Below are positions 23,122-48,755 of a DNA stretch of 62,072 nt, piece by piece. This DNA is from an uncultured virus (IMG/VR IMGVR_UViG_2061766007_000215). Its lineage: Duplodnaviria > Heunggongvirae > Uroviricota > Caudoviricetes. The DNA lies in IMG/VR virus record IMGVR_UViG_2061766007_000215. The stretch is one strand, 5' to 3'. Position 1 is the stretch's first letter. Every line of letters starts with the position of its first letter. Both the position numbers and the translations under genes were made by a program. The notes under the pieces were generated by a model, which did not search any database, was not told the origin of the DNA, and worked only from the letters and a program-made list of their open reading frames with translations.

Positions 23122-23391
23122 TTGATGATGATTATGATAATACAGAAGATTAAATCTAAGTTTAAAAACGCTAAAGCATTAGATATATATGTTACGTTTT
23201 CTATATTATCACTTATAATATACACTATAATTTCACAATTATTATCAATATATTATGGAGTGATATTAGATACACTAACTACTTGTTTCTTTGGATTTTT
23301 TGGTGGTGAAATTGTAACGTGTGGTCTAATTAAGATATTTAAACTTAAAGATAAAGAAAAAAACTCCGAAGAAATTGACGGAGTGGGTTGA
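23122..23391 (+). CDS. two-TM membrane protein (holin-like)
   Basis: DTLTTCFFGFFGGEIVTCGLIK; start uncertain. Confidence 0.55.
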   Translation: MMMIMIIQKIKSKFKNAKALDIYVTFSILSLIIYTIISQLLSIYYGVILDTLTTCFFGFFGGEIVTCGLIKIFKLKDKEKNSEEIDGVG

Positions 23392-23416
23392 CAATTTAAT
23401 ATTTATATGATATAAT
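23388..23416 (+). promoter_or_regulatory. consensus sigmaA promoter upstream of the ncRNA cluster
   Basis: TTGACA-17 nt-TATAAT, extended -10 TG. Confidence 0.8.
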
Positions 23417-23429
23417 ATATATGTGATAG

Positions 23430-24326
23430 AAAAAACTTATTAGTTTTTGTAAGGGTTGGGCTACCATACCCGACCCTAGTTTTAAAAGGTATAAATATAT
23501 GAAAGTAATTATAGGATTTTTATTTATAGGTTGGATATTTAATATCTGTGAAGAAATAATTGCATGAATATTTGAATGTATAGAAAATAAAGATTGGTTT
23601 TGCCTTGCATTACCATTTATTATAATTGCTCTTAGTATATTTATAACTTGGTTATTATATCGTTTTGGTATATATACAGATAAATTAATTGAACCTATCA
23701 CACATTAAGGTTGTAGTTAGTTGCCCTATATGGTCAGTTAATGATTTTGGGTGTGATATATACTGCGCCTTTAAGGGCATTAATAAATGAANNNNNNNNN
23801 NNNNNNNNNNNNNNNNNNNNNNNNNNNNNNNNNNNNNNNNNNNNNNNNNNNNNNNNNNNNNNNNNNNNNNNNNNNNNNNNNNNNNNNNNNNNNNNNNNNN
23901 NGAGTCGTAGACAAGGAGAAGGACAGGGTACGACAATTATATTAAAAGGTATAATAATATGAGCAGACTTGAAGAATTAGCAAATAGTTTATTTGGTGAA
24001 ATGAGAGATATGACACNNNNNNNNNNATCAATTTTGTACTTATTAATGGGGAACTTACACAGAATTAATAATATGGGGTGTAAGTAAGTCTGTAGTTGAG
24101 AATGGGTAAAACAGACAAGAGAGGTCTTGCTTTAATAGACGACTCACAAATACGCTTTGCGGTGTGCGGTAAAGAAACACCGTTTCTTTAAGAAATTTCT
24201 TAATGCAATGGTAATAGTTAAGAATTTGGGAATATTTCTTTTGCGTACTTTGTTGAATAACCCATAAAAAATTTCGACAAATGACGAGGTATCTACCTTG
24301 TTTGCGGTGCAAGGTTAAAAAACCGC
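23430..24326 (+). ncRNA. putative structured ncRNA cluster, copy Y (gapped)
   Basis: Five sequence/structure modules shared with 27983-28663. Confidence 0.6.
23499..23708 (+). pseudogene. small membrane-protein ORF with internal TGA
   Basis: MKVIIGFLFIGWIFNICEEIIA*IFECIENKDWFCLALPFIIIAL...; TGA at 23565. Confidence 0.4.
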
Positions 24327-24501
24327 TTAATATTTATGAGTAGANNNNNNNNNNTGAAAAGAACAATTAAAAAAGAAATATTCCAAGACAACTTTATAAA
24401 ACGTTGGACTTGTGGTGCTAAAAATCATCCCCAAGGTTGGTCTTGGTGGAAAAGGCACAATAGAAAGTTATTAAGACATAAATTAAAAGGAGATATTAAA
24501 G

Positions 24502-24719
24502 ATGAATGAAATATTAGCATTTCTTTCAGAGAATTGGTATGTAATAGCAGTAGTTTTAGTATTACTTTTTGGTATTTACTATACTATTACAAATAAACAG
24601 AAAGTTAAGATTTGGCTCGAATGGGCGGTTACTACTGTAGAAAAGGAACTTGGAACAAAAACAGGACAACTTAAATTAAGAAAGGTCTATGATATGTTTA
24701 TAGAAAGATTTCCTATCTT
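24502..24719 (+). CDS. holin, allele 1 (truncated by gap)
   Basis: N-terminal TM plus WL.WAV..E.ELG.KTGQLKLR.VYDMF (LL-H-like holin pattern). Confidence 0.7.
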
Positions 24720-24730
24720 NNNNNNNNNNA

Positions 24731-25136
24731 AAGAAAGTAAAAGGAGTTCCCAATGTTAAGGTTAAGACGAATGAAGATGATTTCTTTTTTACATTTGATG
24801 AGTTTATAAAAGTTAGAGATAAACTTGTTGAACAAGGAGATTTACAAAATGCCGTAATGTGGTCTCTTGCTTTTGATTCAGCAGGAAGACGTAATGAAAT
24901 ATTTCAAGTTAAAAAGCAAGGACTACTTGATGGTAATAAAACCAATGTTGTTATTGGTAAACGTGGGAAACAATTTCCACTTGTGTATCTCAATGACACA
25001 AAAGAATTAATTCGACAGTATTTAGAACAGCGTGGCGATGATGATATAGACTCGTTGTGGATATGTGGATCTGGTGAAAATAAACGTCCGGCTGCCCCAG
25101 AGGTTCTTTATAATCGTATGACTGGCAAAATAAACG
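24731..25136 (+). CDS. tyrosine recombinase, internal fragment
   Basis: FDSAGRRNEIFQV (box I Arg), VIGKRGK, YLEQRGDDDIDSLW. Confidence 0.75.
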
Positions 25137-25151
25137 NNNNNNNNNNATTTA

Positions 25152-25253
25152 ATGGGTATTCCACCTGCTTGTAGAAATTGTGGTAATCATCCTGTTAATG
25201 GCGGTAGTGGTATTTGTCATTGTACATTAGGTATGCCTAAAATAACTTATTAA
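25152..25253 (+). CDS. small Cys/His-rich ORF end (possible Zn-binding)
   Basis: MGIPPACRNCGNHPVNGGSGICHCTLG; second allele at 29147-29245. Confidence 0.55.
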   Translation: MGIPPACRNCGNHPVNGGSGICHCTLGMPKITY

Positions 25254-25263
25254 GGAGATAATT

Positions 25264-25440
25264 ATGAAACCACCTACACCCGAAGAAATTTATGAAGAGA
25301 TGTTAGCAATTAAAGAATTTGATGATAACCCCGAAATGGTACATATTAATTTTGATGAATATATATGTGAAGTTTTAAAATCTTATGGCTTTCATAAGGG
25401 TGTGGAAGTATTTGAAAATACTGAAATATGGTATTCTTAA
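25264..25440 (+). CDS. hypothetical 58-aa protein (allele-specific)
   Basis: AAGGAG RBS; absent between the same flanking genes at about 29250. Confidence 0.55.
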   Translation: MKPPTPEEIYEEMLAIKEFDDNPEMVHINFDEYICEVLKSYGFHKGVEVFENTEIWYS

Positions 25441-25459
25441 TATAAAGGAGATTTAAATT

Positions 25460-25786
25460 ATGAATGAAATAATAGCGTTTCTTTCAGAAAATTGGTATGT
25501 AATAGTAATGGTGTTGGTCTTGCTTTTTGCTATTTATTACACGATAACGAACAAGACTAAAGTTAAAGAATGGCTCTGTTACGCAGTAACCATAGCAGAA
25601 CGTGATTTAAAATCGGGTACAGGACAACTTAAACTTAGACAAGTTTATGATATGTTTATTGAAAGATTTCCTATATTCTCTAAACTTGTACCTTTTTCAA
25701 CGTTCTCTATGTGGGTGGACGAGGCTCTTGTGTTCCTTCGTGAACAATTAGAAAAAAATGAAGCAATTAAGAATTTTGTGGGATAA
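25460..25786 (+). CDS. holin, allele 2
   Basis: N-terminal TM, GTGQLKLRQVYDMF; directly upstream of the endolysin. Confidence 0.75.
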   Translation: MNEIIAFLSENWYVIVMVLVLLFAIYYTITNKTKVKEWLCYAVTIAERDLKSGTGQLKLRQVYDMFIERFPIFSKLVPFSTFSMWVDEALVFLREQLEKNEAIKNFVG

Positions 25787-25897
25787 AATTAAAGATATTA
25801 AAGCCACCTTAGAAATAGGGTGGCTTTATTTTATAGGTAAACCAAATGGAATAGATAGAATATATATTTTATCTATCTATAAAGGAGGTAAACTAAA

Positions 25898-27481
25898 ATG
25901 AGCAAAATCGGTCATGCAAGCCTTGGTAGTAATGGCAAGACTACAGGTGATAAATCGGGTGACCAAGGAAGGGAAGTTGTTACAACTTCTTGGATGAAGA
26001 AAAATTGGAGTTATGTTTTAAGAGCAAAGGATTCCAATATAGCAGAATTAATGTCTAAGGCTTGTGAAGCGGGTTGTGCTAATCAATGCGTGGGATATAA
26101 TCAAACCCGTAGAAACAGTTTAAAAGCACAAGCAAAATTAGTTGGAATGGATTTGTCACGTATTAAAACAGATTGTGATTGTGATTGTAGTTCATTTATG
26201 ACAGTATGTGCTGAGTGTGCAGGTATTCCTATTCCTTATAATGGAAGTAATGCCCCCACCACAAGTTCGATGAAGGTGGCGTTTATGAATACAGGATATT
26301 TTGATTTACTTACAGATAAAAAATTTCTCGATTCTGATAAGTACCTCAAAAGGGGCGATATATTAGTAGCCGTTGGTCAACACGCAATTATGTGTCTTGA
26401 GAACGGGGTTATGGCAGATATTTCACAATTAGCAAATCAACAACAAGTACCTATTAAAGCCGTTGATTTATCACAATTTAATGTGGTAACTGATTATAAA
26501 CAAATGGCTAATGAGATAAAATATATTTTCTTGCGTATAGGTAGGCGTGGTTCAACCGATGGTAATATTGTAGAAGATACAGGATTTAAGAAACATATAG
26601 ATAATTGTATTGCTAATGGAATACAAAATTTGGGTTTGTACTTTTATGACCAAAGCATTTCAGAACAAGAAGCAATAGAACAGGCTAATTGGATTGTAGA
26701 TAAATTAAAATATTATAATATTACTAAAAATATTACACTACCAATTTACATTGATTCAGAATCAAGTCCTAATCATAATGGTCGTGCAGATAATATATCT
26801 AAAGAACAACGTACTAAGAATATTATAGCATTTTGTGATAGAATTAAATTGTTAGGATTTAAAGAAGGGGTTTATTCGGCTGATAGTTGGTATAAGTCAA
26901 TGTTAGATTTTGACCAAATAAAAAATTATAATATTTGGTGTGCAAGATATTCAACTGAGAAACCAACCATACCTAAGTACGATATTTGGCAATATGGCTC
27001 AGAACAGTTTATTTGGGCGCAAAAACCGATTGATGTGAATTGGATATACAATTTATCTACTAATATCCAAAAACCCGAAAATGGGGCTAATAAGAGCCAA
27101 ATTAAGACTATTAATAATAAAGTAAAAGTAACTGATTATCTTAATATAAGAAATCAACCGTTATCTAATGCACCTATAGTTGGTAAATTATATCTTAATG
27201 ACCAAGTGCCTATATTTGGTTATGTCCATGATTGGTATATGATAAGCACAACTATGGATAAATGGGTTAGTGCTAAATATGTATTTACTAATACAGGTAA
27301 AACTACCGCAAATCTAAATTATAGAGCAGGTGTTGGAACAAATAATAAATCACTAGGTATTTATGAGAAAGGTACAGTTGTTAAACTACTTAATAAAGCA
27401 GAATTTAATGGCGATACTTGGTATTTATGTTTAGATAATAAAGATAGATTTGGTTGGTGTAGTGGGAAGTATATAGAATGA
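25898..27481 (+). CDS. endolysin: NlpC/CHAP-like + GH25 muramidase + 2 SH3b
   Basis: DCSSF...GDILV...H; AVDLSQFN...YIDSE...IWCARY...IWQY...DVN; LNIR and LNYR SH3b repeats. Confidence 0.88.
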   Translation: MSKIGHASLGSNGKTTGDKSGDQGREVVTTSWMKKNWSYVLRAKDSNIAELMSKACEAGCANQCVGYNQTRRNSLKAQAKLVGMDLSRIKTDCDCDCSSFMTVCAECAGIPIPYNGSNAPTTSSMKVAFMNTGYFDLLTDKKFLDSDKYLKRGDILVAVGQHAIMCLENGVMADISQLANQQQVPIKAVDLSQFNVVTDYKQMANEIKYIFLRIGRRGSTDGNIVEDTGFKKHIDNCIANGIQNLGLYFYDQSISEQEAIEQANWIVDKLKYYNITKNITLPIYIDSESSPNHNGRADNISKEQRTKNIIAFCDRIKLLGFKEGVYSADSWYKSMLDFDQIKNYNIWCARYSTEKPTIPKYDIWQYGSEQFIWAQKPIDVNWIYNLSTNIQKPENGANKSQIKTINNKVKVTDYLNIRNQPLSNAPIVGKLYLNDQVPIFGYVHDWYMISTTMDKWVSAKYVFTNTGKTTANLNYRAGVGTNNKSLGIYEKGTVVKLLNKAEFNGDTWYLCLDNKDRFGWCSGKYIE

Positions 27482-27732
27482 TAGTATATCGTTATGAAAA
27501 ATCAGATAAAGGTGGAGTATTTTTTACATTAAATGGAATTAATAGAAATAGTAATGTATGTTCTAATGATAATTGGATAAGTTGTTGTGAAAGTGAAGAA
27601 TTATTAAAACAATGGTTTTCAGAAAGAAACATAGATACATCTGATTGTCATATAGTTATTTATAATATTCCAAAAGAAGTAATAAAGAAAACAAGAACAC
27701 ATTTGATTTTTCCAAAAGAATATTTATATTAA
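27478..27732 (+). CDS. hypothetical protein (allele-specific)
   Basis: 84 aa overlapping the endolysin stop; missing after the second endolysin allele. Confidence 0.55.
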   Translation: MIVYRYEKSDKGGVFFTLNGINRNSNVCSNDNWISCCESEELLKQWFSERNIDTSDCHIVIYNIPKEVIKKTRTHLIFPKEYLY

Positions 27733-27741
27733 TAAAAAATT

Positions 27742-27780
27742 AAAGGGAAAAGATATATATTTTATCTTTTCCCTTTTTTT
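27742..27780. terminator. bidirectional intrinsic terminator
   Basis: AAAGGGAAAAGATA / TATCTTTTCCCTTTTTTT; near-identical copy at 32571-32608. Confidence 0.75.
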
Positions 27781-27797
27781 AGTTTNNNNNNNNNNGT

Positions 27798-27983
27798 AGA
27801 CATTCAAGGATTGAAAGTCTACAGCAAGGGACAGACGATAGGCTTAAAGATGAAAATGGTAAAAATCGTAAATATCCGATTGAGCAGATTCAAGTAATGG
27901 CCCATCATTCAGATTTATCCACTACTGCCGGATATCTTAAAAATCATGACGAGGATACGATTAATGAAATGTTTGGATTTTAA
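27798..27983 (+). CDS. tyrosine recombinase, C-terminal fragment
   Basis: RHSRIE...IQVMAHHSDLSTTAGYLK (box II His and catalytic Tyr); missing from the ORF track. Confidence 0.75.
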   Translation, partial: RHSRIESLQQGTDDRLKDENGKNRKYPIEQIQVMAHHSDLSTTAGYLKNHDEDTINEMFGF

Positions 27984-28740
27984 AAACTTAATAGTTTTGT
28001 AAGGATTAAGTCTGACTATAAATCCTAGTTTTTAATTGAACCTATCACACATTAAGGTTGTAGCGTGTTGCCCGATGTACACGGTCAGTTCGTGATTTTG
28101 GGTGTGATATATACAGAGCCTTTAAGGGCATTAATAAATGAACGAAAGTCGTTAGAGTCTTTCAGCAGAAGCGGTATCTAGTGGGATTTAATTTGCGGAT
28201 TAAATCATTCATCAAAAGTCTAAAACCGCTAATATCAATTCTGTACTTATAATGGGTAGACTTGCCTATCTATATGATAGTGGTAATTTTAGGGCGACAA
28301 GTCAGATTAGTTTGAGTCGGGGCGACTAATCAAATTATATAGGGGATTCCTGTTGGCGAGAAGTGGTAAGGCAACCATAAGTATTCCAAATAAATGCAGG
28401 TGGGAACGTGTCGTAGACAAGGAGAAGGACAGGGTACGACATTATGTGAGTGACGGGAACGTTAAAATTATGAATATTAAAGATTTACACCTTAATACAT
28501 ATAAATACCATATAAAAGTTAGCAGATTTACAGATATATATACTAACTCTTTATGGTATGCGGTTAAGGCATATATACGAAAATATATCTAATGGCAATA
28601 ACGCTTTTTGCGTTTCAGTAAAACAACAAGACCTTGTTTTCGGTGCAAGGTTAAAAAAACCGACAAACTTAGCCCTTTACGGGCAGTTATAAAGTCAAGA
28701 AAAAGGCTAACTGACTTTGTTTCGGTTGGCTTTTTTCAAT
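27983..28740 (+). ncRNA. putative structured ncRNA cluster, copy X (contiguous)
   Basis: About 750 nt with no credible ORF, dense hairpins and pseudoknots, modules conserved with copy Y. Confidence 0.65.
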
Positions 28741-28754
28741 ATTAAGGAGTAATT

Positions 28755-29107
28755 ATGGCAAAGAAAATAGAAAAAGTCCGTTTATGTAAAGGACATAATT
28801 CTCCTTTGCTTAATTGCTTAGGAGATATGAGAGAATCCGAGTTTTATACAAGTTGGTCTAAATTTACTGATGGTAAAGTTCCATATTGTAAAACTTGTGT
28901 AAATAAAATATATGAATATTATTTAAGAGAAACGGGTTCTGATAAAACTGCATTATATTTTACTTTAATGAAATTAGATATTCCCTTTATCGAGGAAGTA
29001 TATAATAGTATTGCAGAAAAGAAAACTGTAACTATTAGTACATATATCACAACCTTACAAAGAAAAACTACCTGTCAAGATATTTGGAGTGATTTTACGG
29101 CTACAGA
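28755..29107 (+). CDS. Zn-finger protein, possible terminase small subunit (truncated)
   Basis: FY.S....DGKVPYCKTC...LDIPF resembles SPbeta-like small terminase N-termini (from memory, not searched). Confidence 0.4.
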
Positions 29108-29721: not shown

Positions 29722-30813
29722 ATGAGTATTAAAGCAAGCAATAAAGAAATAATTAAAGAAGATGAAATATGGACAGTATATGTTCATATTATACCAAAAG
29801 AAATATCAAAATACGATTATAATAAATATTATGTAGGTATTACAAGTAGACCTGTTAAATATAGGTGGAATAATGGTAATCATTATAAAGAACAATTATT
29901 TTATAATGCAATTAAAAAATATGGTTGGGATAATATAATACATTATATAGTTGCTACACATCTTTTAGAAGATGAAGCAAAAGAATTAGAAAAAACATTA
30001 ATAAATAAATTAAAATGTAATATATATAAAGATAAGTATGGTTATAACTCTACAGATGGTGGTGATGGTGCATATATATTAGGTTATGTTCCATCAGAAA
30101 ACGCACGATTAAAAATGAGTAAAAATCATTGTGACGACAATGGTAAAAAAAGAATATATCAATTTGATATAAATGGTAAATACATAAAATCTTATAGTAG
30201 TGCAATAGAGGCATCTCGTTTATTGGGATTTAAAAGTCATCATTTTAGTAAATATATAAAAAATCAAGAACTATATCGTGGATATTTGTGGGGTTATGAA
30301 TCTGATATTGAATTAATTGATAATATTCCTGTATTAAAATATAGATATAAAGAAAAAATAAAAAAGATTTCTTGTTCTAAAAAAATATATCAATTTGACC
30401 TTAATGGTAATTATATAACAACTTATTTAAATGTAAAAGACGCAGTAAATAAAGCCAATATAACATATAGTGTTGGTGAATGTATTAAAAAACACAAACC
30501 CTTTTGTGGATATTTATGGGGATTTGATAAAAATATCACATTAATTAATAATATACCTAAATTAAATTATACTTATAAAAGAATTATACCTAAAAGATGT
30601 AAACCTATATATATGTTTGATTTTTATGGAAGATTCATTAAAAAATATGATACGGCTATTGAAGCAGGAAAAGAAAATAATATTAGTAATCAATATATTA
30701 CTAGGTCGGCTAGAATATTAAATACAAGTGGCGGGTATTATTGGAGATATGAAAACGGTATAAGTTTTGATGAAAACAATAATCCTATTTTATTAATAGA
30801 GAATATAAAATAA
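29722..30813 (+). CDS. free-standing GIY-YIG homing endonuclease with NUMOD1-like repeats
   Basis: WTVYVH...KYYVGIT...RW..G...GYNST.GGDG; three IYQFD.NG.YI..Y repeats. Confidence 0.85.
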   Translation: MSIKASNKEIIKEDEIWTVYVHIIPKEISKYDYNKYYVGITSRPVKYRWNNGNHYKEQLFYNAIKKYGWDNIIHYIVATHLLEDEAKELEKTLINKLKCNIYKDKYGYNSTDGGDGAYILGYVPSENARLKMSKNHCDDNGKKRIYQFDINGKYIKSYSSAIEASRLLGFKSHHFSKYIKNQELYRGYLWGYESDIELIDNIPVLKYRYKEKIKKISCSKKIYQFDLNGNYITTYLNVKDAVNKANITYSVGECIKKHKPFCGYLWGFDKNITLINNIPKLNYTYKRIIPKRCKPIYMFDFYGRFIKKYDTAIEAGKENNISNQYITRSARILNTSGGYYWRYENGISFDENNNPILLIENIK

Positions 30814-30981: not shown

Positions 30982-32565
30982 ATGAGTAAAATCGGAAATT
31001 CCTCCATAGATGAACGTAATAAAACGAGTGGTGGTAAAGCAGGTGACCAAACAGGCAGAGAAGTTTGTACAACTTCATGGTATAAAAAAAATTGGACATA
31101 TGTTTTACGTGCTAAAGATAAAAATATAGCCGAACGTATGGCAAAGGCTTGTGAAGATGGTTGTGCAAATCCCGCACTTGGTTATGACCAAAATCAGCGC
31201 AATTCTTTACGAACTCAAGCAAAACTTTGTGGTATGAATTTAGCGTTAATTAAAACTGATTGTGAATGTGATTGTAGTTCATTTATGTCAGTATGTGCTG
31301 AATGTGCAGGTGTTCCTATTTCTTATAATGGTAATAATGCACCCACTACATCATCTATGAAGTCAGCATTTATGAATACGGGTTATTTTGATTTACTTAC
31401 AGATAATAAATATCTACAAGATGATAAGTATCTTAAAAGAGGGGATATTTTAGTAGCCGTAGGTCAACATACTGTAATGATATTAGAAGATGGTGTTATG
31501 GCTGATATATCTAAAATAGAAACAGTATCAACTCAAATTAAAGCGGTTGATATTTCACAATTTAATATTATAACTGATTATAAAAAGATGACTAATGAAA
31601 TAACTCATATAATCATACGTATAGGTAGACGTGGTTCATCTGATGGAAATATAGTAGAGGACAATTCATTCCAAAAGCACATAACTAATTGTATATCTAA
31701 TGGAATAAAAAATATTGGAGTTTATTTTTACGACCAAAGCATTTCAGAACAAGAAGCAATAGAACAGGCTAATTGGATTGTAGATAAATTAAAATATTAT
31801 AATATTGATAAAAATATTACATTACCAATTTATATTGATTCAGAAGCAAGTCCTAATCATATAGGTCGTGCTGATAATATATCTAAAGACCAACGTACTA
31901 AGAATATTATAGCATTTTGTAATAGAATTAAATTATTAGGATTTAAAGAAGGGGTCTATGCGTCTGACAGTTGGTACAAGTCAATGCTTAATTTTGACCA
32001 AATAAAAAATTATAATATTTGGTGTGCAAGATATTCAACTCAAAAACCGACTATATCTAAGTATGATATTTGGCAATATGGCTCAGAACAATTTATTTGG
32101 GGTCAAAAACCGATTGACGTGAATTGGATATATACTTTATCATCTAATACTCAAAAACCCGAAAATAACCCCCCTACGTACAAAATAAAGGATATTAATA
32201 ATAGGGTTAAAGTAAGTGACTATCTTAATATAAGAAACCAACCATTACCTAATGCACCTATAATTGGTAAATTATATCCTAATGACCAAGTTCAAATATT
32301 TGGATATGTTCATGATTGGTATATGATAAGTACGACTATGGATAAATGGGTTAGTGCTAAATATATAATAACTAATACAGGTAAAACAATATCTAACCTA
32401 AATTATCGTGCAGGTGTAGGAACAAATAATAAATCATTGGGTATTTATGAAAAAGGAACTATTGTTAAATTACTTAATAAAGCAAATTATAATGGGGAAA
32501 TATGGTATTTATGTTTAGATAATCAAGATAGATTTGGTTGGTGTAGTGGAAAATATATTGAATAA
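30982..32565 (+). CDS. endolysin, second allele
   Basis: 527 aa, colinear with 25898-27481. Confidence 0.88.
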   Translation: MSKIGNSSIDERNKTSGGKAGDQTGREVCTTSWYKKNWTYVLRAKDKNIAERMAKACEDGCANPALGYDQNQRNSLRTQAKLCGMNLALIKTDCECDCSSFMSVCAECAGVPISYNGNNAPTTSSMKSAFMNTGYFDLLTDNKYLQDDKYLKRGDILVAVGQHTVMILEDGVMADISKIETVSTQIKAVDISQFNIITDYKKMTNEITHIIIRIGRRGSSDGNIVEDNSFQKHITNCISNGIKNIGVYFYDQSISEQEAIEQANWIVDKLKYYNIDKNITLPIYIDSEASPNHIGRADNISKDQRTKNIIAFCNRIKLLGFKEGVYASDSWYKSMLNFDQIKNYNIWCARYSTQKPTISKYDIWQYGSEQFIWGQKPIDVNWIYTLSSNTQKPENNPPTYKIKDINNRVKVSDYLNIRNQPLPNAPIIGKLYPNDQVQIFGYVHDWYMISTTMDKWVSAKYIITNTGKTISNLNYRAGVGTNNKSLGIYEKGTIVKLLNKANYNGEIWYLCLDNQDRFGWCSGKYIE

Positions 32566-35051: not shown

Positions 35052-35867
35052 TTATTTATTTTTAATTATATCTTCTATAATTAAATCATATTTATCTTTC
35101 TTACGTTTCATATATATAGTTGCATTATCGTACAAATAATTATATACTTTTAACATATCTTCATTACTACGATAAGCAATAGACCACAAACTTTCTTTTT
35201 CTTGATATAAAGATATAATACTAGTATTTATTTCTTTATGTAAAAATTGTATAACATCATTTAAAAATTCTTTATTTCCTTGACATAATCTAATTGCTTT
35301 TGTATAAGAATTAGGTCTATCTTTTCTTTTATAAAACGCTATACTACCATCACCATCTATAATTCCTCTTAATAAATGTGGGTACATATTATGATTAATA
35401 TTAGTTGGGAATATAGTATTTAAACTCTTTCTTGGAATAACACCATATTTTGATAAATCTTTAACCATCTTATTTGATGATATTGATATTTCAAAACAAC
35501 CTCTGTTATCACTTGTAATATGTTTATTTATATAAATATCTTTTATAAAAGATTCTAAAAGATATTTGTCACATTCTTGTAAACATATACTAATACTATT
35601 TTGTTTTGTACTATGTTCAAATATACAACCATCTGATATTATTAATCCTAAAAAATATGCTTTATTTTCAGTATCTATAGTTTCAAAATAATTTTCTATA
35701 AATTGTGGTGAAAATAATTTAGTTTTTGTATATGTGTTAATATTGTTTTCTTTTAACACTTTAGAAATTGTTGGTTTACATAGATTAAATTTTTTAGCAA
35801 CATTTTCTATAGTCATTGGTTTTGATAAATAATAATTTACAATATCTTCTTTTGAATAATTTTTCAT
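35052..35867 (-). CDS. free-standing LAGLIDADG homing endonuclease
   Basis: KAYFLGLIISDGCI and LLRGIIDGDGSI. Confidence 0.88.
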   Translation of the reverse strand: MKNYSKEDIVNYYLSKPMTIENVAKKFNLCKPTISKVLKENNINTYTKTKLFSPQFIENYFETIDTENKAYFLGLIISDGCIFEHSTKQNSISICLQECDKYLLESFIKDIYINKHITSDNRGCFEISISSNKMVKDLSKYGVIPRKSLNTIFPTNINHNMYPHLLRGIIDGDGSIAFYKRKDRPNSYTKAIRLCQGNKEFLNDVIQFLHKEINTSIISLYQEKESLWSIAYRSNEDMLKVYNYLYDNATIYMKRKKDKYDLIIEDIIKNK

Positions 35868-35875
35868 ATAATTTC

Positions 35876-36358
35876 TTATGAAATCCTTTCAGCATATTGA
35901 TTAGGACTTGATAATTCTATTCCTAATATTTCATCATAATGGTGTGGTTGGTCGGGAATAAAACGTCCAAATTTAATAATAATGTTAGGAAATTGTTTTA
36001 AATTTCGTATAATATATCCTTTATTATATATTTCTTCTTCTGTATATCCTGTATAAATCACAATATCATCAATAGTTTTATTCCTTATTGCACATATTAA
36101 TTCCCATAAATTTTCCCAACTATCAAAAGGTTCTAACCCACCACATACAATAGCGTTTGTAATAGGATTATCTATATATTTTTGTGCTATTTTATCAGCA
36201 CGTATTTTTATATTAGGAAGTTTTACTAATTTACTATTTTGACATATAGATTGACCACATTCTTTATCACATTTAAAACTACAAGTAGGAAATATAATAA
36301 ACATGGATATTTTTTTATAATTTATTGTATCTGTTTCAATAATATCTTTAACTAACAC
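35876..36358 (-). CDS. nrdG: anaerobic RNR activating radical SAM protein
   Basis: CSFKC...CQN cluster motif, GGLEPF, YTGY, S.NQYA; adjacent to nrdD. Confidence 0.85.
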   Translation of the reverse strand: MLVKDIIETDTINYKKISMFIIFPTCSFKCDKECGQSICQNSKLVKLPNIKIRADKIAQKYIDNPITNAIVCGGLEPFDSWENLWELICAIRNKTIDDIVIYTGYTEEEIYNKGYIIRNLKQFPNIIIKFGRFIPDQPHHYDEILGIELSSPNQYAERIS

Positions 36359-38306
36359 TATTATCCCACTTTCTTAATTTAAACTCTTCTTTACGCTCTT
36401 TACTCCAAGTTTTAGTAGGTACATAAAAACCAACTACTCTTGAATATTCAGCCGTTTTAGGTTCTCCACAAGTAGGGCAAGTGTCACCATAAAATGCGTG
36501 ATTATGATTACAAGCAGAAATTTTTGTGTTAAATGCAAAATATGTTACACCGCTTTGTGCAATATAATTTGTCATTTTAAGAGCCTTTTCATAACTATTA
36601 AATGGTGCATCTATATTATAATGAAGTATTGAACCACCATTACAATAACCATCAAAAGCGGCTTGTATCTTAATTCTTTCTTGACCTGTAGTTTGAATAC
36701 CTAAAGGAATAAACTGATTACCATAAAGAGGTAAATCATAAATCTTAGCCTTTGGATAGAAAAACTTATCCTTTTTCATTAACTTACCTGCGGCACTTTC
36801 AGCAGGTATTTGTTCTGTGTTTATCTGATAATCACAATTATTTTCTGCTATAAATTCTGCTATAACTTCTCTAATTGTTTCAAATATCTTACGACCAAGT
36901 GTATAAGCCTTATCCGTATAATAAACATTTCCTAATTCATCTTTTTCAATATATTTAAATTTTTTCATAGTTTCATATATACCGATAAATCCTACTGTAT
37001 TATATAGATGTTCAAAATCAATAAGATTATATGTGAAGTTAGGCAATAGTCCTTTTTCTACATTTCTTTTAATTATATGTCTTACACAATCTAAGGCTTG
37101 AAGATTTATATTTGTCCTTCTCTTTAATTCTGAAAGATATTCTTCTTCGTTTTTAGTATCAAGAGCAAGTCTAGCAAGGTTAATTGTAGATACTTTAACA
37201 GAACCAACTTTAAGAGCCGTTCCTCCTACGGAATTGAAATAGCCTAAGTCACGTATATCTGATTTAAGTCTACAACAATTTGAAAGACTATTAACTGATG
37301 TATCTACAAATATATTACTGTCAGACCATTTCATATTATGTTTAATAGCCCATTCAGCAAATTCTTTATCTTCAAATCCATCAAGTGTTTCTAAATCATA
37401 ATTACCTTGTTTTCTTAATAGACTAATAGTGCTAACAGGGAATGTAAACATACACGTACTGCGTATATCTGACATAACTTCCATATACCACTTTTGAAAC
37501 TCTATAATTTCTTCTTCAAAATCAATCATAAAAGTTCCATCGGGAAATTCTGAACCACCAAAAAGTGCTTCAAAGTAAGGTCTATCAAATACACTTGTAT
37601 TAGTAAATGCACTTTGTGAACCATCTCTTACATAAGGTTGATTAAGAGCATATATAAGACGTTGAAATGCTTGGTCTGCATAATATCTTTCATTATGTGA
37701 AATCTTTATACCAAGATAATCATTATCTACATCTTTCTTCCAAAAATAAAACATATAAGGAATTATATTAGGTAAACCAACCGCACCACTTGTTCTATTA
37801 CTTGCAAAACTTACAAATTCTTTTACAAAATCTACAAATGTAATAAGGTGTTGTGCAGGTAAAGCATTATGTCCATCAATAAAATATAACCCTTTTTCTG
37901 CTAAATCTTTAAGGTCATAAGCAAAACAATATGAACGGAAAGAACAAGAATTAGCATCGTGCATATATAAAGCACCAATCCATTCCATTTCTAACCAATC
38001 ATTAGCCGCTTTAAACCCATACTTTTTCTGAATTTCATAATATATTTTATTAAATGCTAAAAGTTTACTATGTGGTTTAGGCATTTCTCTTTCAAGAGTT
38101 ACAATGTCTTTATGACTAACATTTGAGTTTCCATCAATAGAAGCATCTGCAACGGTTGTTTTGTCTATAAAATTGTTAATAAAATCGGTATATGATAACT
38201 GTGGGTCATCAAACCCATTAATCTCTGCAATATCAGTTCCATACTTTTCTTGCATACGATTATAAGCAGTTACAAAGTTTTTGCATAAATTAATATTAAT
38301 ATACAT
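36348..38306 (-). CDS. nrdD: class III ribonucleotide reductase, no ATP cone, CCR-type active site
   Basis: YMHD, TFPV, NCCRL, EQIPAES, C-terminal Zn site (CPTC), SRVVGFY glycyl-radical motif. Confidence 0.92.
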   Translation of the reverse strand: MYININLCKNFVTAYNRMQEKYGTDIAEINGFDDPQLSYTDFINNFIDKTTVADASIDGNSNVSHKDIVTLEREMPKPHSKLLAFNKIYYEIQKKYGFKAANDWLEMEWIGALYMHDANSCSFRSYCFAYDLKDLAEKGLYFIDGHNALPAQHLITFVDFVKEFVSFASNRTSGAVGLPNIIPYMFYFWKKDVDNDYLGIKISHNERYYADQAFQRLIYALNQPYVRDGSQSAFTNTSVFDRPYFEALFGGSEFPDGTFMIDFEEEIIEFQKWYMEVMSDIRSTCMFTFPVSTISLLRKQGNYDLETLDGFEDKEFAEWAIKHNMKWSDSNIFVDTSVNSLSNCCRLKSDIRDLGYFNSVGGTALKVGSVKVSTINLARLALDTKNEEEYLSELKRRTNINLQALDCVRHIIKRNVEKGLLPNFTYNLIDFEHLYNTVGFIGIYETMKKFKYIEKDELGNVYYTDKAYTLGRKIFETIREVIAEFIAENNCDYQINTEQIPAESAAGKLMKKDKFFYPKAKIYDLPLYGNQFIPLGIQTTGQERIKIQAAFDGYCNGGSILHYNIDAPFNSYEKALKMTNYIAQSGVTYFAFNTKISACNHNHAFYGDTCPTCGEPKTAEYSRVVGFYVPTKTWSKERKEEFKLRKWDNSVS

Positions 38307-42687: not shown

Positions 42688-44919
42688 TCACCTATGCTTA
42701 ACTCTCATTTCTACTTCTTGTTGTTTACCAAGATTGAAAGCCGACCTATAATCTCCCGTTAAATAGCCTGTGACACGTCTTAATCTACGTATATTATGAC
42801 TACCACATTCGGGGCAAGTATCATTCATATCATCAGTAAAACCACAATCATTACACATATCATTAGGAACATTAATAGCAAAATAAGGTATATCTTTATC
42901 CATAGCATAATTTACTATTGCTTCTAATGCTTGTAGATTATGTTTAACTGAACCATCTAGTTCTATATAAGTAATACAACCTGCGGAACTATAACCTGTT
43001 AGTTGTGATTCTATATCTATTTTTTCAATAGGCGACATATTTATCCATACGGGTACGTGCATTGAATTTGTAAAAAATTCTTTATCAGAAATATTAGGTA
43101 TTTCACCATATTGCTCTTTAAATTTTTGCATAGCCGTATAACATAAGTTTTCGGAAGGGCTATAATATACACCAAAATTAAGATAATAAGTATAATCAGT
43201 TAATTCACCATTGATTATCAACTCTTTATGATGTAATTCTTTTTTAAATTCAGCACATCTATCTTTAAATAATTGTTCTATACGTTTTGCTAGTTCCATA
43301 CCTTTAGGATTTGTATGGTCACAACCCATAAGTATTTGTAAACATTCTGCAAGTCCTAATTGACCGATTGCAAGTGTACCATGTTTAAGTGCTGATATAA
43401 TACCTTCTTCGGGTACATATCCTGCCATTGTATTATTTTCATACATAAACTTAGCGGCATCGGGCGATTGAGAACATATATAATCAAAACGTTCTATTAA
43501 TGTGTCTTTGGTGTCATAAATTGCTTTATCTAAAATATTAATAAATTCATCAATATTTTTACTTCCAATTTCTCCACTTGTTTCCATAGCAAGAGTTGGT
43601 AAGATTATTGTACAAGGACAGATATTTCCACGACCATCTTTAAGTTGACCAAATCCATTAGCATCAAATCCATTGGCGGTTCTGCATCCCATTGTACTAA
43701 AATAAGTACGTGGGTCATTTATATCATAACCTTCGTTACCACTCCAATCACAATTTGCATAATTTGGGTATAATCTTTGTGCCGTAGATTTGAGGGCTAA
43801 TTGGAATAAATCATAATTAGGGTCGCCTTTTTGTCTATTAACACCTTTCATACATTGGAAGATACCACAAGGAAATATACTTGTTTTATGAAATTTTCCA
43901 ACACCTTTTATACTACCTTCAATGAGTGCTTTAGTTACCATACGACCTTCGGGTAAAGTACAAGTACCGTAGTTAATTGAGGTGAATGGCAGTTGATTTC
44001 CCGACCTTGATTGAAGTGTATTTAAATTATGATACATACCTTCAACCGCTTGGTTAAGTTCTTTTTCTGTTCTATTTAAAGCATATTTATAAGCCTTTTT
44101 ATTATAAGATTTATAATCAGATTCATCAATAGATAATCCATTATTAAAACTATAATCTAATTCATGTTCTTCTATTAATTCAATATATTCTTTATAATGT
44201 TTAAAAAAAGATTTTCTTACATAAGGTATCATAGTCCAATCTAAGTGTGTAGCAGATACCCCACCAAACTGTTGTAAACTTTGTAATTGAAATATAACTG
44301 CAACTAATTGGAAAGCCGTATTAATAGAATTAGCAGGTCTTACATCAGTTTGTCTTGTATTGAAGCCTTTAGCAAGTAAATCATCAAACGGAATACTTAA
44401 ACAATTATGAGAGCCTATAGCATAACTATCAAGGTCATGTATATAGATTCTATTCTTTAAATGATTTTCTTTTGATTTACGACACATACAATTATTAAGT
44501 GCATATTCTTTTAATACATCAGAAGATACTGCACCCATTTTTCCACCAAAAGAACGTTCATCTACATTAGCGTTTTGATTTTCTACATTTGTTGCTTTTA
44601 ATCGTCTTGTGATAGATTTATTAAGTTTGCTACGTTTATCTCTCTCTAATGTTCTATTATTCCTATAAAGAATATAACTTTTAGCAACATCTTTACGATT
44701 ACTTGCCATTAGTTTTTTTTCAATTATATCCTGTATTTCTTCTACATTTAAATCTTTGTTTTCATTTTCTTTTTCAATACTTTGTGCTATTGTTTCAATT
44801 TTTTCTTTACTTTCATCAGTAAGTTCTTTATCAATATCTATAAAGGCTTGTTCTAATGCCTTTATAATTTTTCCTTTATTGAATTGAACAATTCTACCAT
44901 CACGTTTAGTTACTTGCAT
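42688..44919 (-). CDS. nrdD: class III ribonucleotide reductase with ATP cone, MGCR-type active site
   Basis: VTKRDGR ATP cone, YIHDLD, HNC, MGCRT, YYSPSENLC, RRVTGYL. Confidence 0.93.
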   Translation of the reverse strand: MQVTKRDGRIVQFNKGKIIKALEQAFIDIDKELTDESKEKIETIAQSIEKENENKDLNVEEIQDIIEKKLMASNRKDVAKSYILYRNNRTLERDKRSKLNKSITRRLKATNVENQNANVDERSFGGKMGAVSSDVLKEYALNNCMCRKSKENHLKNRIYIHDLDSYAIGSHNCLSIPFDDLLAKGFNTRQTDVRPANSINTAFQLVAVIFQLQSLQQFGGVSATHLDWTMIPYVRKSFFKHYKEYIELIEEHELDYSFNNGLSIDESDYKSYNKKAYKYALNRTEKELNQAVEGMYHNLNTLQSRSGNQLPFTSINYGTCTLPEGRMVTKALIEGSIKGVGKFHKTSIFPCGIFQCMKGVNRQKGDPNYDLFQLALKSTAQRLYPNYANCDWSGNEGYDINDPRTYFSTMGCRTANGFDANGFGQLKDGRGNICPCTIILPTLAMETSGEIGSKNIDEFINILDKAIYDTKDTLIERFDYICSQSPDAAKFMYENNTMAGYVPEEGIISALKHGTLAIGQLGLAECLQILMGCDHTNPKGMELAKRIEQLFKDRCAEFKKELHHKELIINGELTDYTYYLNFGVYYSPSENLCYTAMQKFKEQYGEIPNISDKEFFTNSMHVPVWINMSPIEKIDIESQLTGYSSAGCITYIELDGSVKHNLQALEAIVNYAMDKDIPYFAINVPNDMCNDCGFTDDMNDTCPECGSHNIRRLRRVTGYLTGDYRSAFNLGKQQEVEMRVKHR

Positions 44920-47732: not shown

Positions 47733-48755
47733 TTACTCAAATTTCTTTACTATAGTATAGTTTTTAAGTATTTCTTCTTGTTCCTCTGATTGTACCCATT
47801 CATCGTTTTCATTCTTTTTACGCTTATGTTGAGTATTAAATACGGCTTTTATTATATCCCCACTATCACAAGGATTTAAATTATAAGCACTACGTTTTAC
47901 TTTATTTTGAAAATATTCACCTGTAGATGGGTGGTATATAGTAATAAACTTAGTACCATATTTATTTGTTTCAATGTTCCCAACTACATAAATATTGTCG
48001 GGGATTGTATTATCTATTCTATCTGTATAACCTAGTATACCCATTTCATTTGATATACGTTCTATATTAGTTATCGGTTCATATGGTGTTTTATTACATA
48101 TTACTTCAATTACATTAGGCATATTAATACCGTTAATTGTCTTTTCTGTGACTTTTTCAATGTAAGGCTTAATATCCTCTAATGTAATTCCAAAAACGTC
48201 TAATTCAGCCGATTTAAGAGTTTTACGCTTATATAATGATATAAATATATTAAAGTTGTTTAAAAGATAATTTATATCTCCAAATTCTCTAAAGAAATCT
48301 ATCTTAATAAGTTTTTCTATTTCATTCTTCTGTGCAAGTTTTTTTGTAAATATATCAAATAATAATTCTGTAAAGTTAGAATATATTTTATCTCTTAAAA
48401 AGGTATATAGATTATTTCCACATAATACGCCTATATTTTTAATTGAACCTATACCTTTGTATATTATCTTATTATCAGTATCACAACTATATTTACTTGT
48501 GGAATGTCTAAATACAGGTGGCTCTATTTTAATGTTAAAATATTTACACTCATTAGTTAAGCGTTCTGATTTAGCCCCATCATCACTATAAAGATTAAAT
48601 ACTACTGTATAATATTCTACAGGATAATTAGCCTTTAAATAAGCACAATATAAACAATCTAAAGCAGTTGCTAATCCGTGAGGTGAATTAAAAGAATAAG
48701 ACATATTACTTTGCATATCAGCCCACGACTCATCAAACCCATCATAACTACCTGT
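47733..48755 (-). CDS. dnaE: DNA polymerase III alpha, C-terminal fragment
   Basis: YSFNSPH...YLKANYPVEYY, GIGSIKNIG. Confidence 0.85.
   Translation of the reverse strand, partial: TGSYDGFDESWADMQSNMSYSFNSPHGLATALDCLYCAYLKANYPVEYYTVVFNLYSDDGAKSERLTNECKYFNIKIEPPVFRHSTSKYSCDTDNKIIYKGIGSIKNIGVLCGNNLYTFLRDKIYSNFTELLFDIFTKKLAQKNEIEKLIKIDFFREFGDINYLLNNFNIFISLYKRKTLKSAELDVFGITLEDIKPYIEKVTEKTINGINMPNVIEVICNKTPYEPITNIERISNEMGILGYTDRIDNTIPDNIYVVGNIETNKYGTKFITIYHPSTGEYFQNKVKRSAYNLNPCDSGDIIKAVFNTQHKRKKNENDEWVQSEEQEEILKNYTIVKKFE

Follow-up and report, generated by a model that had tools for sequence, protein, structure and literature searches.

The subject of this work is a non-coding region in the genome of an uncultured Caudoviricetes virus (IMG/VR record IMGVR_UViG_2061766007_000215; the whole stretch of 62,072 nucleotides is called the window), which extends from about position 27,983 to 28,740 as copy X of a set of conserved blocks and recurs, with interruptions, further upstream as copy Y. 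Several described systems can be compared with it. RNA anti-CRISPRs are phage-borne solitary or mini-array CRISPR repeats, and T4-type hyperplastic regions contain PeSL promoter/stem-loop cassettes, which are present many times per genome and flank open reading frames (ORFs); T4 also has a cluster of tRNAs and stable RNAs. As described in the available passages of Blower et al. (2012, PMC3475682), the Pectobacterium phage PhiTE evades the ToxIN system via a pseudo-ToxI RNA. The repeats of tenpI are long, non-identical and pseudoknot-capable, and the accessible text of Nadig et al. (2025, PMC12283969) speculates that single repeats in viruses may suffice. In Clostridioides difficile, an Abi_2 protein (AbiF) is neutralised by the adjacent small RNA RCd22 through direct binding, according to the excerpts available of a preprint (Saunier et al. 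2025, bioRxiv 10.1101/2025.04.15.648962). A natural phage array of different RNA mimics was found neither by full-text literature searches nor in the available passages of a review of November 2026.

The reading that we favour, with a probability of about 45%, is that the region is a promoter-driven array of independent small RNAs that serve as decoys of host RNA antitoxins. The locus consists of accessory, shuffled and independently folding modules of ~30-110 nt each, and it is situated between tail genes and lysis genes in one clade of lytic-looking rumen Firmicutes phages. Of the options named in a first-pass annotation, which was made from the sequence alone, an array of small RNAs with protein decoys or anti-defence RNAs fits best; in two relatives, one module shows homology to a type III antitoxin RNA of the host. 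Four relatives carry the region without N, namely L001 from IMG/VR and the metagenome contigs L003 and L004, all three obtained by a protein-anchored endolysin scan, and L019, a contig of a Coprobacillaceae metagenome-assembled genome (MAG) that was found via an M6 pattern scan of species genomes. The modules are named M1, M2, B, b2, C, D, E, M5, F, M6 and H, and their positions are collected in Table 1.

Module F is complete in L004 and L019, and its homologues are tandem repeats that precede TenpN-like type III toxin genes in genomes of Coprobacillaceae. When the L019 region was compared by blastn with 81 species genomes of the MAG's family, F was 80-88% identical to three tandem units in genome G055 and 81% identical to a unit in G068. 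The G055 locus comprises a promoter, 54-nt repeats (2.6 copies by Tandem Repeats Finder, three by blast), a terminator and a 155-aa ORF (L038:976-1440, minus strand). This ORF matches the NCBIfam model TenpIN with an E-value of 2.1e-7, as do 25 of 25 aligned homologues (best 2.6e-14), but its bit score of 31 compares with an NCBIfam cut-off of 90, and the host toxins are therefore distant TenpIN relatives and not equivalogs. Sequence searches of Pfam, PADLOC and PDB gave no match to the ORF. With its AlphaFold (AF2) model (predicted local distance difference test score 87), the top five Foldseek matches were ToxN (7d8o, 2xd0, 4ato), AbiQ (4glk) and CptN (4rmo) at TM scores of 0.56-0.71, and the ORF is predicted to be a ToxN-type endoribonuclease in both fold and family.

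Phage F modules can be aligned with the host units from end to end, and two crossing helices with 13 pairs may be common to both; in this pseudoknot drawing, 78 of 78 cells are paired, as compared with 34-55% when the partners are slid. A covariance model of F matched six loci: L050, L004, L019 and L052 (E <= 3e-12), L051 (E 0.017) and L057 (E 0.44). The first four belonged to the alignment from which the model was built, which leaves L051 and L057 as independent matches, and there was no other match in 437 kb. The host matches lie directly upstream of a TenpN-like gene or gene fragment, at four of the six such loci found in the family. A TenpN-like ORF was detected by hmmsearch neither in the window nor in L001, L003, L004, L005, L007, L011, L012 and L019, so that F is an orphan unit, as would be expected of a mimic. 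As in tenpIN (NF047358; available text of PMC12283969), the host loci have a promoter, tandem 54-nt repeats, a terminator and a ToxN-fold toxin, whereas the phages carry the RNA unit without the toxin. The situation is similar to that of the PhiTE pseudo-ToxI, for which the available passages (PMC3475682) describe a phage non-coding RNA that resembles a host type III antitoxin repeat without its own toxin gene and for which mimicry was proposed. PhiTE, as presented there, has one kind of mimic with tandem repeats that expand under selection, and an escape phenotype is known; the phages described here have a single TenpI-like unit among a dozen unrelated, shuffled modules behind one promoter, and their arrays are known from sequence alone. 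A role of F as a decoy is supported by its homology in the relatives.

Of 301 genomes sampled from the order to which the L019 MAG belongs, 78 have ToxN-family genes. A set of 30 ToxN loci of Erysipelotrichales (L089-L114) includes 14 tandem arrays of 32-40 nt with 1.9-3.2 copies and several sequence types, which can directly serve as a collection of the ToxI-like antitoxins of Erysipelotrichales.

A second link to host RNAs is given by a 57-nt insert of L019, which is ~80% identical to a small RNA of the host that has a promoter and a terminator of its own. This host RNA is located just 3' of Abi_2 (PF07751) genes in all six places, in five genomes, and its alignment with the insert has 28 predicted pairs, three of which are compensatory. 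Its position suggests that the insert, too, might be a decoy. The host RNA is ~95 nt long and conserved (L039, L040, L041, L043, L045 and L047, from G026, G027, G029, G030 and G031, twice in G030), and we regard it as a candidate for a new Abi_2-linked RNA. With RCd22, it shares a length of ~100 nt, a sigmaA promoter, a terminator and the place beside an Abi_2 gene; as far as the available text describes it (10.1101/2025.04.15.648962), RCd22 is found upstream of the gene and contains two abiF motifs (RF03085), whereas the RNA described here is found 3' of the gene. The abiF motif gave no match at the Abi_2-linked RNAs or in the phage records, with one unrelated match at E 0.013, and the other Rfam models likewise failed to recognise the host RNA. 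Abi_2 genes occur in 44 of the 81 genomes of the MAG's family, and the phages would be under pressure from both kinds of host system.

If the region is indeed an array of decoys, the host sigmaA polymerase would transcribe it early and strongly, and the modules would act in trans by copying host RNA antitoxins. As infection shuts off host antitoxin synthesis, the decoys would keep type III toxins (TenpN/ToxN-type endoribonucleases) bound and silent, Abi_2-type effectors would possibly be held silent likewise, and abortive infection (Abi) would fail as a consequence of the toxins being silent. Such RNAs would have in common with the RNA anti-CRISPRs that a phage non-coding RNA copies the RNA partner of a host defence protein, but the proposed targets are toxin-antitoxin or abortive-infection systems; no module resembled a CRISPR repeat in the searches made. 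Like the T4 regions, the locus is a highly plastic one of a lytic-looking phage and is presumably driven by an early promoter; hairpins mark the borders of its modules, and a gene for a homing endonuclease is close by. Unlike PeSL cassettes, its modules are single-copy and mostly without a flanking ORF; there is no tRNA gene, and only the promoter type recurs.

The window is composed of 31 pieces with 30 N runs between them, and it contains two versions of one phage. The 527-aa endolysins at 25898-27481 and 30982-32565 are 80% identical (420/528), and the genes for holin, Gam, dCMP deaminase and NrdD are also duplicated. The assumption of two diverged phage genomes is accordingly better replaced by two strains of one phage clade. 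Copy Y has tail genes upstream and holin and endolysin genes downstream, and copy X is found on a 1312-nt piece (27796-29107) upstream of a 130-aa ORF, followed in later pieces by a holin, a GIY-YIG/NUMOD endonuclease and an endolysin. The phage looks lytic, as it has genes for a DNA polymerase, NrdD, exonuclease V, tape-measure and tail-fibre proteins and no complete integrase. In copy Y, the sequence is interrupted by 110 N (23792-23901) and by N10 joints at 24017 and 24345, which makes its module order unreliable; the site where block B would be expected falls where the sequence is unreadable.

A blastn search with the X contig against the whole window confirmed that blocks recur between X and Y, clearly so for M2 (28032-28142 and 23685-23791; 111 nt, 88%, E 1.5e-35), M5 (28410-28445 and 23904-23940; 37 nt, 97%) and M6 (28631-28658 and 24295-24322; 28 nt, 96%). 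The matches of M1 (27982-28007 and 23431-23457; 27 nt, 89%) and of the block formerly called M3 (28234-28256 and 24027-24050; 24 nt, 92%) both have an E-value of 0.019 and taken alone are at chance level; they are credible only because the blocks recur in L001, L003, L004 and L019. Every module is single-copy per strain, and apparent extra copies of M2 at 48436 and 49780 turned out to be chance matches of 17-24 nt within a minus-strand gene. That copy X has no credible ORF could be verified, since there is none of at least 80 aa on either strand between 27983 and 28754 and the short ORFs in that interval are not conserved in the relatives. For B-C, coding was ruled out separately, since the frame that is open in L003 is closed in X where b2 joins, and synonymous differences are absent. 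The promoter that had been recognised in front of copy Y is indeed perfect and carries a TG extension. The same consensus type is found on the minus strand at ~34818-34764, 42480-42426 and 55517-55486, where it heads replication and nucleotide-metabolism genes, and it appears to be the standard host-polymerase promoter of the phage.

The conservation of the blocks exceeds that of the coding genes. Block identity amounts to 88-100%, while the endolysin genes of these phages reach 72-81% in DNA and 43-65% at fourfold sites; over the entire locus, identity varies between 72 and 97% in mosaic segments. Block B is identical at 46 of 46 positions in X, L001, L003 and L019 and at 43 of 43 in L004, and C at 18 of 18 in five sequences. 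D is 93-99% identical to L001 and L003, E is the same in X and L019 (71/71) and 96% identical in L003, and identity among the M5 copies of X, Y, L003 and L019 is 95-100%. The M6 core (28632-28658, 27 nt) is even found in the IMG/VR contigs L011 and L012, which belong to otherwise unrelated phages of higher G+C content, with 26 of 27 positions (96%) identical to X and a match to the form of Y, L004 and L019 over 31-33 nt. It is located in non-coding DNA there as well, with a terminator directly after it in L011 and ~110 nt further on in L012, and a small coiled-coil/membrane ORF comes next in both; an XhlA identity of these ORFs is not supported by Pfam. The interval from M6 to the terminator contains, on the minus strand of L012 (~2995-2900), three direct ~12-nt repeats, which may be a protein-binding site.

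The first-pass annotation had proposed that selection acts on RNA structure. Its interpretation is supported in this part: the region is non-coding, conserved far above neutral expectation, folded on the plus strand, headed by a consensus promoter and without an Rfam family. The folds of single sequences are unremarkable (z -1.7 and -1.3 for M1+M2, no better than shuffles). In the M2 helix, 96.2% of 133 cells are paired, as compared with 32-47% when the partners are slid, and there are three compensatory pairs; the covariation score was reached by 1 of 500 shuffles and the number of such pairs by 9 of 500. The structure was taken from the same five sequences, which flatters these pairing figures. 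Five invariant G-U pairs and two one-sided changes that yield G-U indicate that the M2 helix forms on the plus strand only. M1 was not called a terminator by a terminator scan, and in L004 its stem is shortened and capped by a 4-nt loop. The B-C helices are present in all five minimum free energy (MFE) folds, with b2 adding helices on top. M6 has 27 invariant columns in eight sequences, and in the palindromic hairpin that precedes it, all six pairs are kept in L012 in spite of two double changes. Insertions and deletions at apical loops comprise whole hairpins, as seen for b2 and for the inner hairpin of an L003 insert, by which, as a whole, this insert differs from the form in L019.

The modularity of the region becomes apparent when the contiguous loci are compared. 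X has the order ORF fragment, M1, M2 with a 27-nt hairpin insert, B, b2, C, D, E, M5, an F remnant, 150 unique nt, M6, H and terminator. L003 begins with the promoter, followed by M1, H, M2, B, C, a 144-nt insert, D, E, M5, a unique stretch, the palindromic hairpin with M6, and ORFs. After the promoter of L004 come a 140-nt insert, the shortened M1, H, a diverged M2, a 116-nt insert, B, C, F and the palindromic hairpin with M6. The L001 region consists of promoter, a 104-nt insert, M1, a 69-aa ORF, M2 without the 27-nt hairpin, B, b2, C, a 212-nt insert, D and again the palindromic hairpin with M6. L019, finally, combines promoter, a variant of the L001 insert, M1, H, the 57-nt insert, M2, B, C, a shorter form of the L003 insert, E, M5, F and the palindromic hairpin with M6. 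H thus follows M1 in L003, L004 and L019 but M6 in X, and each of D, E, M5, b2 and F is lacking in some contiguous relatives. At the sharp junctions 28035, 28180, 28249/50, 28445, 28658 and 28693, the sequence is joined to different neighbours among the loci, and to yet others in rumen-run contigs of other studies. In 17 more distant IMG/VR phages that possess the small membrane ORF which precedes the promoter, further ORFs follow directly, without promoter and without array, and the array is therefore a clade-specific insertion. A 20-nt ribosome-binding block is repeated before three small ORFs.

The insert between promoter and M1 in L001 (1650-1752) and L019 (minus strand, ~3690-3575) is closed by a 6-bp stem and has a T-arm-like hairpin inside. 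Its 5' and 3' parts are conserved, its middle differs, and the 5' part is found again within the 144-nt insert of L003/L019; neither ARAGORN nor Rfam recognised this insert.

Table 1. Positions of modules and flanking features in the window (copies X and Y)
Feature	Position	Strand	Remarks
Consensus sigmaA-type promoter heading copy Y	23388..23416	+	12/12 match, TG-extended; also heads the region in L001, L003, L004 and L019
M1, copy Y	23430..23483	+	two hairpins, short U run after the second; 15 pairs, 1 compensatory
Small hydrophobic ORF between M1 and M2, copy Y	23490..23708	+	last codons are the M2 5' strand
M2, copy Y, long hairpin with 27-nt hairpin insert	23685..23791	+	runs into N gap
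M5, copy Y	23904..23935	+	hairpin, purine-rich loop; blastn
Separate small Y contig	24027..24344	+	block C 24027-24044; hairpin common to L001 insert ~24045-24108; palindromic hairpin 24184-24206; M6 24295-24326
3' end of ORF cut by contig start	27798..27983	+	61 codons; no Pfam match; one PHROG of unknown function, E 1.4e-4
M1, copy X	27978..28031	+	blastn, alignment
M2 long hairpin, copy X	28043..28109	+	27 pairs in family alignment
27-nt hairpin insert, M2 3' side	28114..28142	+	absent in L001; resembles H by eye
B, b2 and C	28135..28249	+	B 28135-28180, b2 28181-28231, C 28232-28249; hairpin domain, B pairs with C, b2 apical extension
D	28250..28333	+	two or three hairpins; absent in L004 and L019
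E and M5	28334..28445	+	E 28334-28409, M5 hairpin 28410-28441; conservation in relatives
Module F remnant	28446..28479	+	23 nt identical to full L004/L019 unit; both pseudoknot partner strands missing
Stretch found in X only among loci	28480..28630	+	found in another rumen sample
M6	28631..28663	+	hairpin; loop can pair with sequence after A-rich run; H-type pseudoknot as drawn
H	28664..28694	+	short hairpin module; position differs among loci
Intrinsic-terminator-like hairpin with U run	28699..28737	+	16-pair helix; ends non-coding stretch before ORF at 28755

Several observations weigh against an array of antitoxin decoys. A host counterpart exists for two of ~14 module types, and neither is complete in the window: the F remnant of X (23 nt) cannot form either helix, and the F model has no match in the window at E <= 1. 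Searches by blastn of 81 family and 401 order genomes, PLSDB and INPHARED gave no credible match to M1, M2, B-C, D, E, M5, M6 or H, and the same modules had no counterpart in 6 TenpN, 30 Abi_2 and 30 ToxN loci. When 15 host tandem arrays were compared with the phage arrays against shuffled controls, F alone stood out (z 14-19, as compared with <=3.7). In the phages, F is single-copy and not tandem, and it has one compensatory pair only, with 187 of 500 shuffles equally good. The covariation of M6 is thin: X changes one pair of the second helix on both sides, so that it is still paired, and L001 breaks the neighbouring pair. The Abi_2-linked host RNA is not the abiF motif of Rfam, and it is its position that suggests a link to Abi_2. 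The assignment of the phages to their host is based on a single MAG bin. Transcription of the array and the binding of toxin by any module are what we infer, and a decoy role of the modules that are complete in the window (M1, M2, B-C, D, E, M5, M6 and H) would likewise follow from the reading of the whole array. In the single run recorded as RNA (X19), 28093-28249 and 28405-28438 are covered by two contigs that may stem from carried-over DNA; two further runs were guessed to be RNA libraries and are probably DNA, and run contigs as such are uninformative on transcription, ends and strand.

In the order-level searches, only two candidates per genome were scored, and weak matches may be missed. 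M6-like matches from these searches lay inside coding genes and are due to chance, the matches in L048 and L049 were also inside genes, and motifs that by eye seemed common to phage modules and host ToxI-like repeats were given no support by alignment scores.

A wider form of this reading, which we consider doubtful, takes the whole array as a multi-specific battery of decoys in which each ultra-conserved module (B-C, M6) copies the antitoxin or RNA cofactor of a different host Abi system. Phages would then shuffle the units like cassettes to suit the defence repertoire of the host, and the array would be an RNA counterpart of protein anti-defence islands.

Alternatively, the modules could be cis-acting hairpins of a hyperplastic "moron" region, that is, 5' and 3' untranslated-region elements, attenuators or processing and stabilising sites of small accessory ORFs, which in addition would provide short homologies for cassette shuffling and would be left behind after the loss of an ORF. 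Several features agree with this: M1 stands before a 69-aa ORF of L001 and Y and M2 over its stop, and exactly this ORF is missing in X, L003, L004 and L019; M5 is in front of a small ORF in Y; the ribosome-binding block precedes its three small ORFs; a terminator follows M6 in X, L011 and L012; and the region is a clade-specific insertion. However, ~0.8 kb of consecutive modules lack a conserved ORF in X, L003 and L019, the modules are single-copy per genome instead of being repeated at many ORFs, and B and C are 100% identical in five lineages without a flanking ORF. As the homology to host antitoxin repeats is also left unexplained, we think that cis-acting hairpins are an unlikely explanation. 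The 69-aa ORF is intact in L001, where it is the counterpart of the small hydrophobic ORF of Y. In Y, it has an in-frame TGA (23565-23567; TGG in L001), which more likely reflects a broken gene or an assembly error than recoding, because code 11 leaves the large ORFs of the window uninterrupted.

It could further be supposed that the region is passive debris, in which a recombination hotspot gathers functionless host and phage fragments, pieces of toxin-antitoxin loci among them, and the high identity reflects recent exchange between phages that circulate together. Genome-wide mosaicism with segments of 72% to 97% identity, the degenerate F remnant in X and the different unrelated inserts at identical junctions would be in line with this. 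The blocks of 18-46 nt, on the other hand, are 98-100% identical amid unrelated flanks while the coding genes differ by 20-28%, substitutions and indels respect the helices, the M6 core is almost unchanged in two otherwise unrelated phage lineages, and a consensus promoter has been retained ahead of the region. We therefore hold this explanation to be clearly improbable.

One large ornate RNA, which the first-pass annotation had left as an option, would have to be of a ROOL/GOLLD-like kind with the variable parts as peripheral insertions, for which some indels at apical loops, the location in phages and the vicinity of a T-loop-like element in L001 and L019 might be quoted. The moving H and the coming and going of D, E, M5, b2 and F exclude a single RNA of fixed architecture, and the long-range helices vary among the five MFE folds. 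ROOL, GOLLD, OLE, raiA and HEARO gave no match at gathering score or at E <= 10. We regard this explanation as very unlikely. In general, Rfam 15 at gathering score had 0 matches in the window, and ARAGORN found 0 tRNA or tmRNA genes in the window and L001. At E <= 10, 13 weak Rfam matches appeared in 23300-28800 and five in L001, none of them credible, and families such as group I/II introns and T-box thus had no credible match either. A match of CsrC at the 3' terminator covered only the terminator part of the model (23.5 bits, gathering score 61). The preQ1-I model (RF00522) had no match at M6 in the L001, L011, L012 and L019 records, and a true preQ1 element was found elsewhere in the MAG. 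The suggestion of ribozymes was not borne out, as hammerhead, twister, pistol, hatchet and group I models had no match at E <= 10.

That the blocks are DNA sites for recombination, packaging, an origin or an operator is just as hard to believe: an ORF fragment with an unconfirmed recombinase label abuts M1 in X, a perfect 16-nt palindrome precedes M6 and direct repeats follow it in L012, but the five invariant G-U pairs of M2 would be A-C mismatches on the other strand, the one-sided changes give G-U on the plus strand only, the recombinase-like fragment is restricted to X among the loci and the modules are not repeated in the genome. The restriction of this fragment to X also led us to reject integron-like cassettes. 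The fragment had been called a recombinase, a label that could not be confirmed, as no Pfam family matched; its junction with M1 is also present in a contig from a run of another study.

The distribution of the region was followed in several collections. The window stretch is present in bovine gut metagenomes, as seen in contigs of sequencing runs. IMG/VR pattern scans for M2 and M5 returned L001's contig at most, a scan in which either M6 helix was free to vary gave no new contig, and blastn searches of INPHARED and PLSDB had no match to the X, L001, L003 and L019 regions.

Some further differences between the two strains were observed. A GIY-YIG/NUMOD1 homing-endonuclease-like ORF (29722-30813) is located between holin and endolysin in strain X, and strain Y has none there. 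The NrdD genes (35055-38306 and 42691-44919) differ as well: one strain has a 743-aa ORF, and the other a 652-aa ORF that is matched in two stretches, with a 160-aa NrdG-like ORF and an adjoining 271-aa endonuclease ORF, which may be a homing-endonuclease or intron difference. As had been remarked for restriction sites, the X contig contains one GGCC and one CCGG, both in the 5' ORF fragment, and the rest of the window has 0 GGCC and 2 CCGG. The totals of 1 GGCC and 3 CCGG in ~59 kb of non-N sequence with ~29% G+C compare with roughly 25-30 each expected from composition alone, which suggests restriction-site avoidance.

Mimicry of type III antitoxin RNAs is so far known from one laboratory case, the pseudo-ToxI of PhiTE, as far as the available literature passages go. 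If the region is indeed an array of antitoxin decoys, shuffled sets of small RNAs would be a routine part of the genomes of uncultured gut phages and would be directed at the RNA-based toxin-antitoxin and Abi defences that these hosts commonly have. Orphan phage RNAs could then be paired with host toxins by homology, and new host RNA-protein defence pairs would be indicated, such as the small RNA beside Abi_2 genes. Even if F were the sole mimic, it would be a natural TenpI-type example in a new host group.

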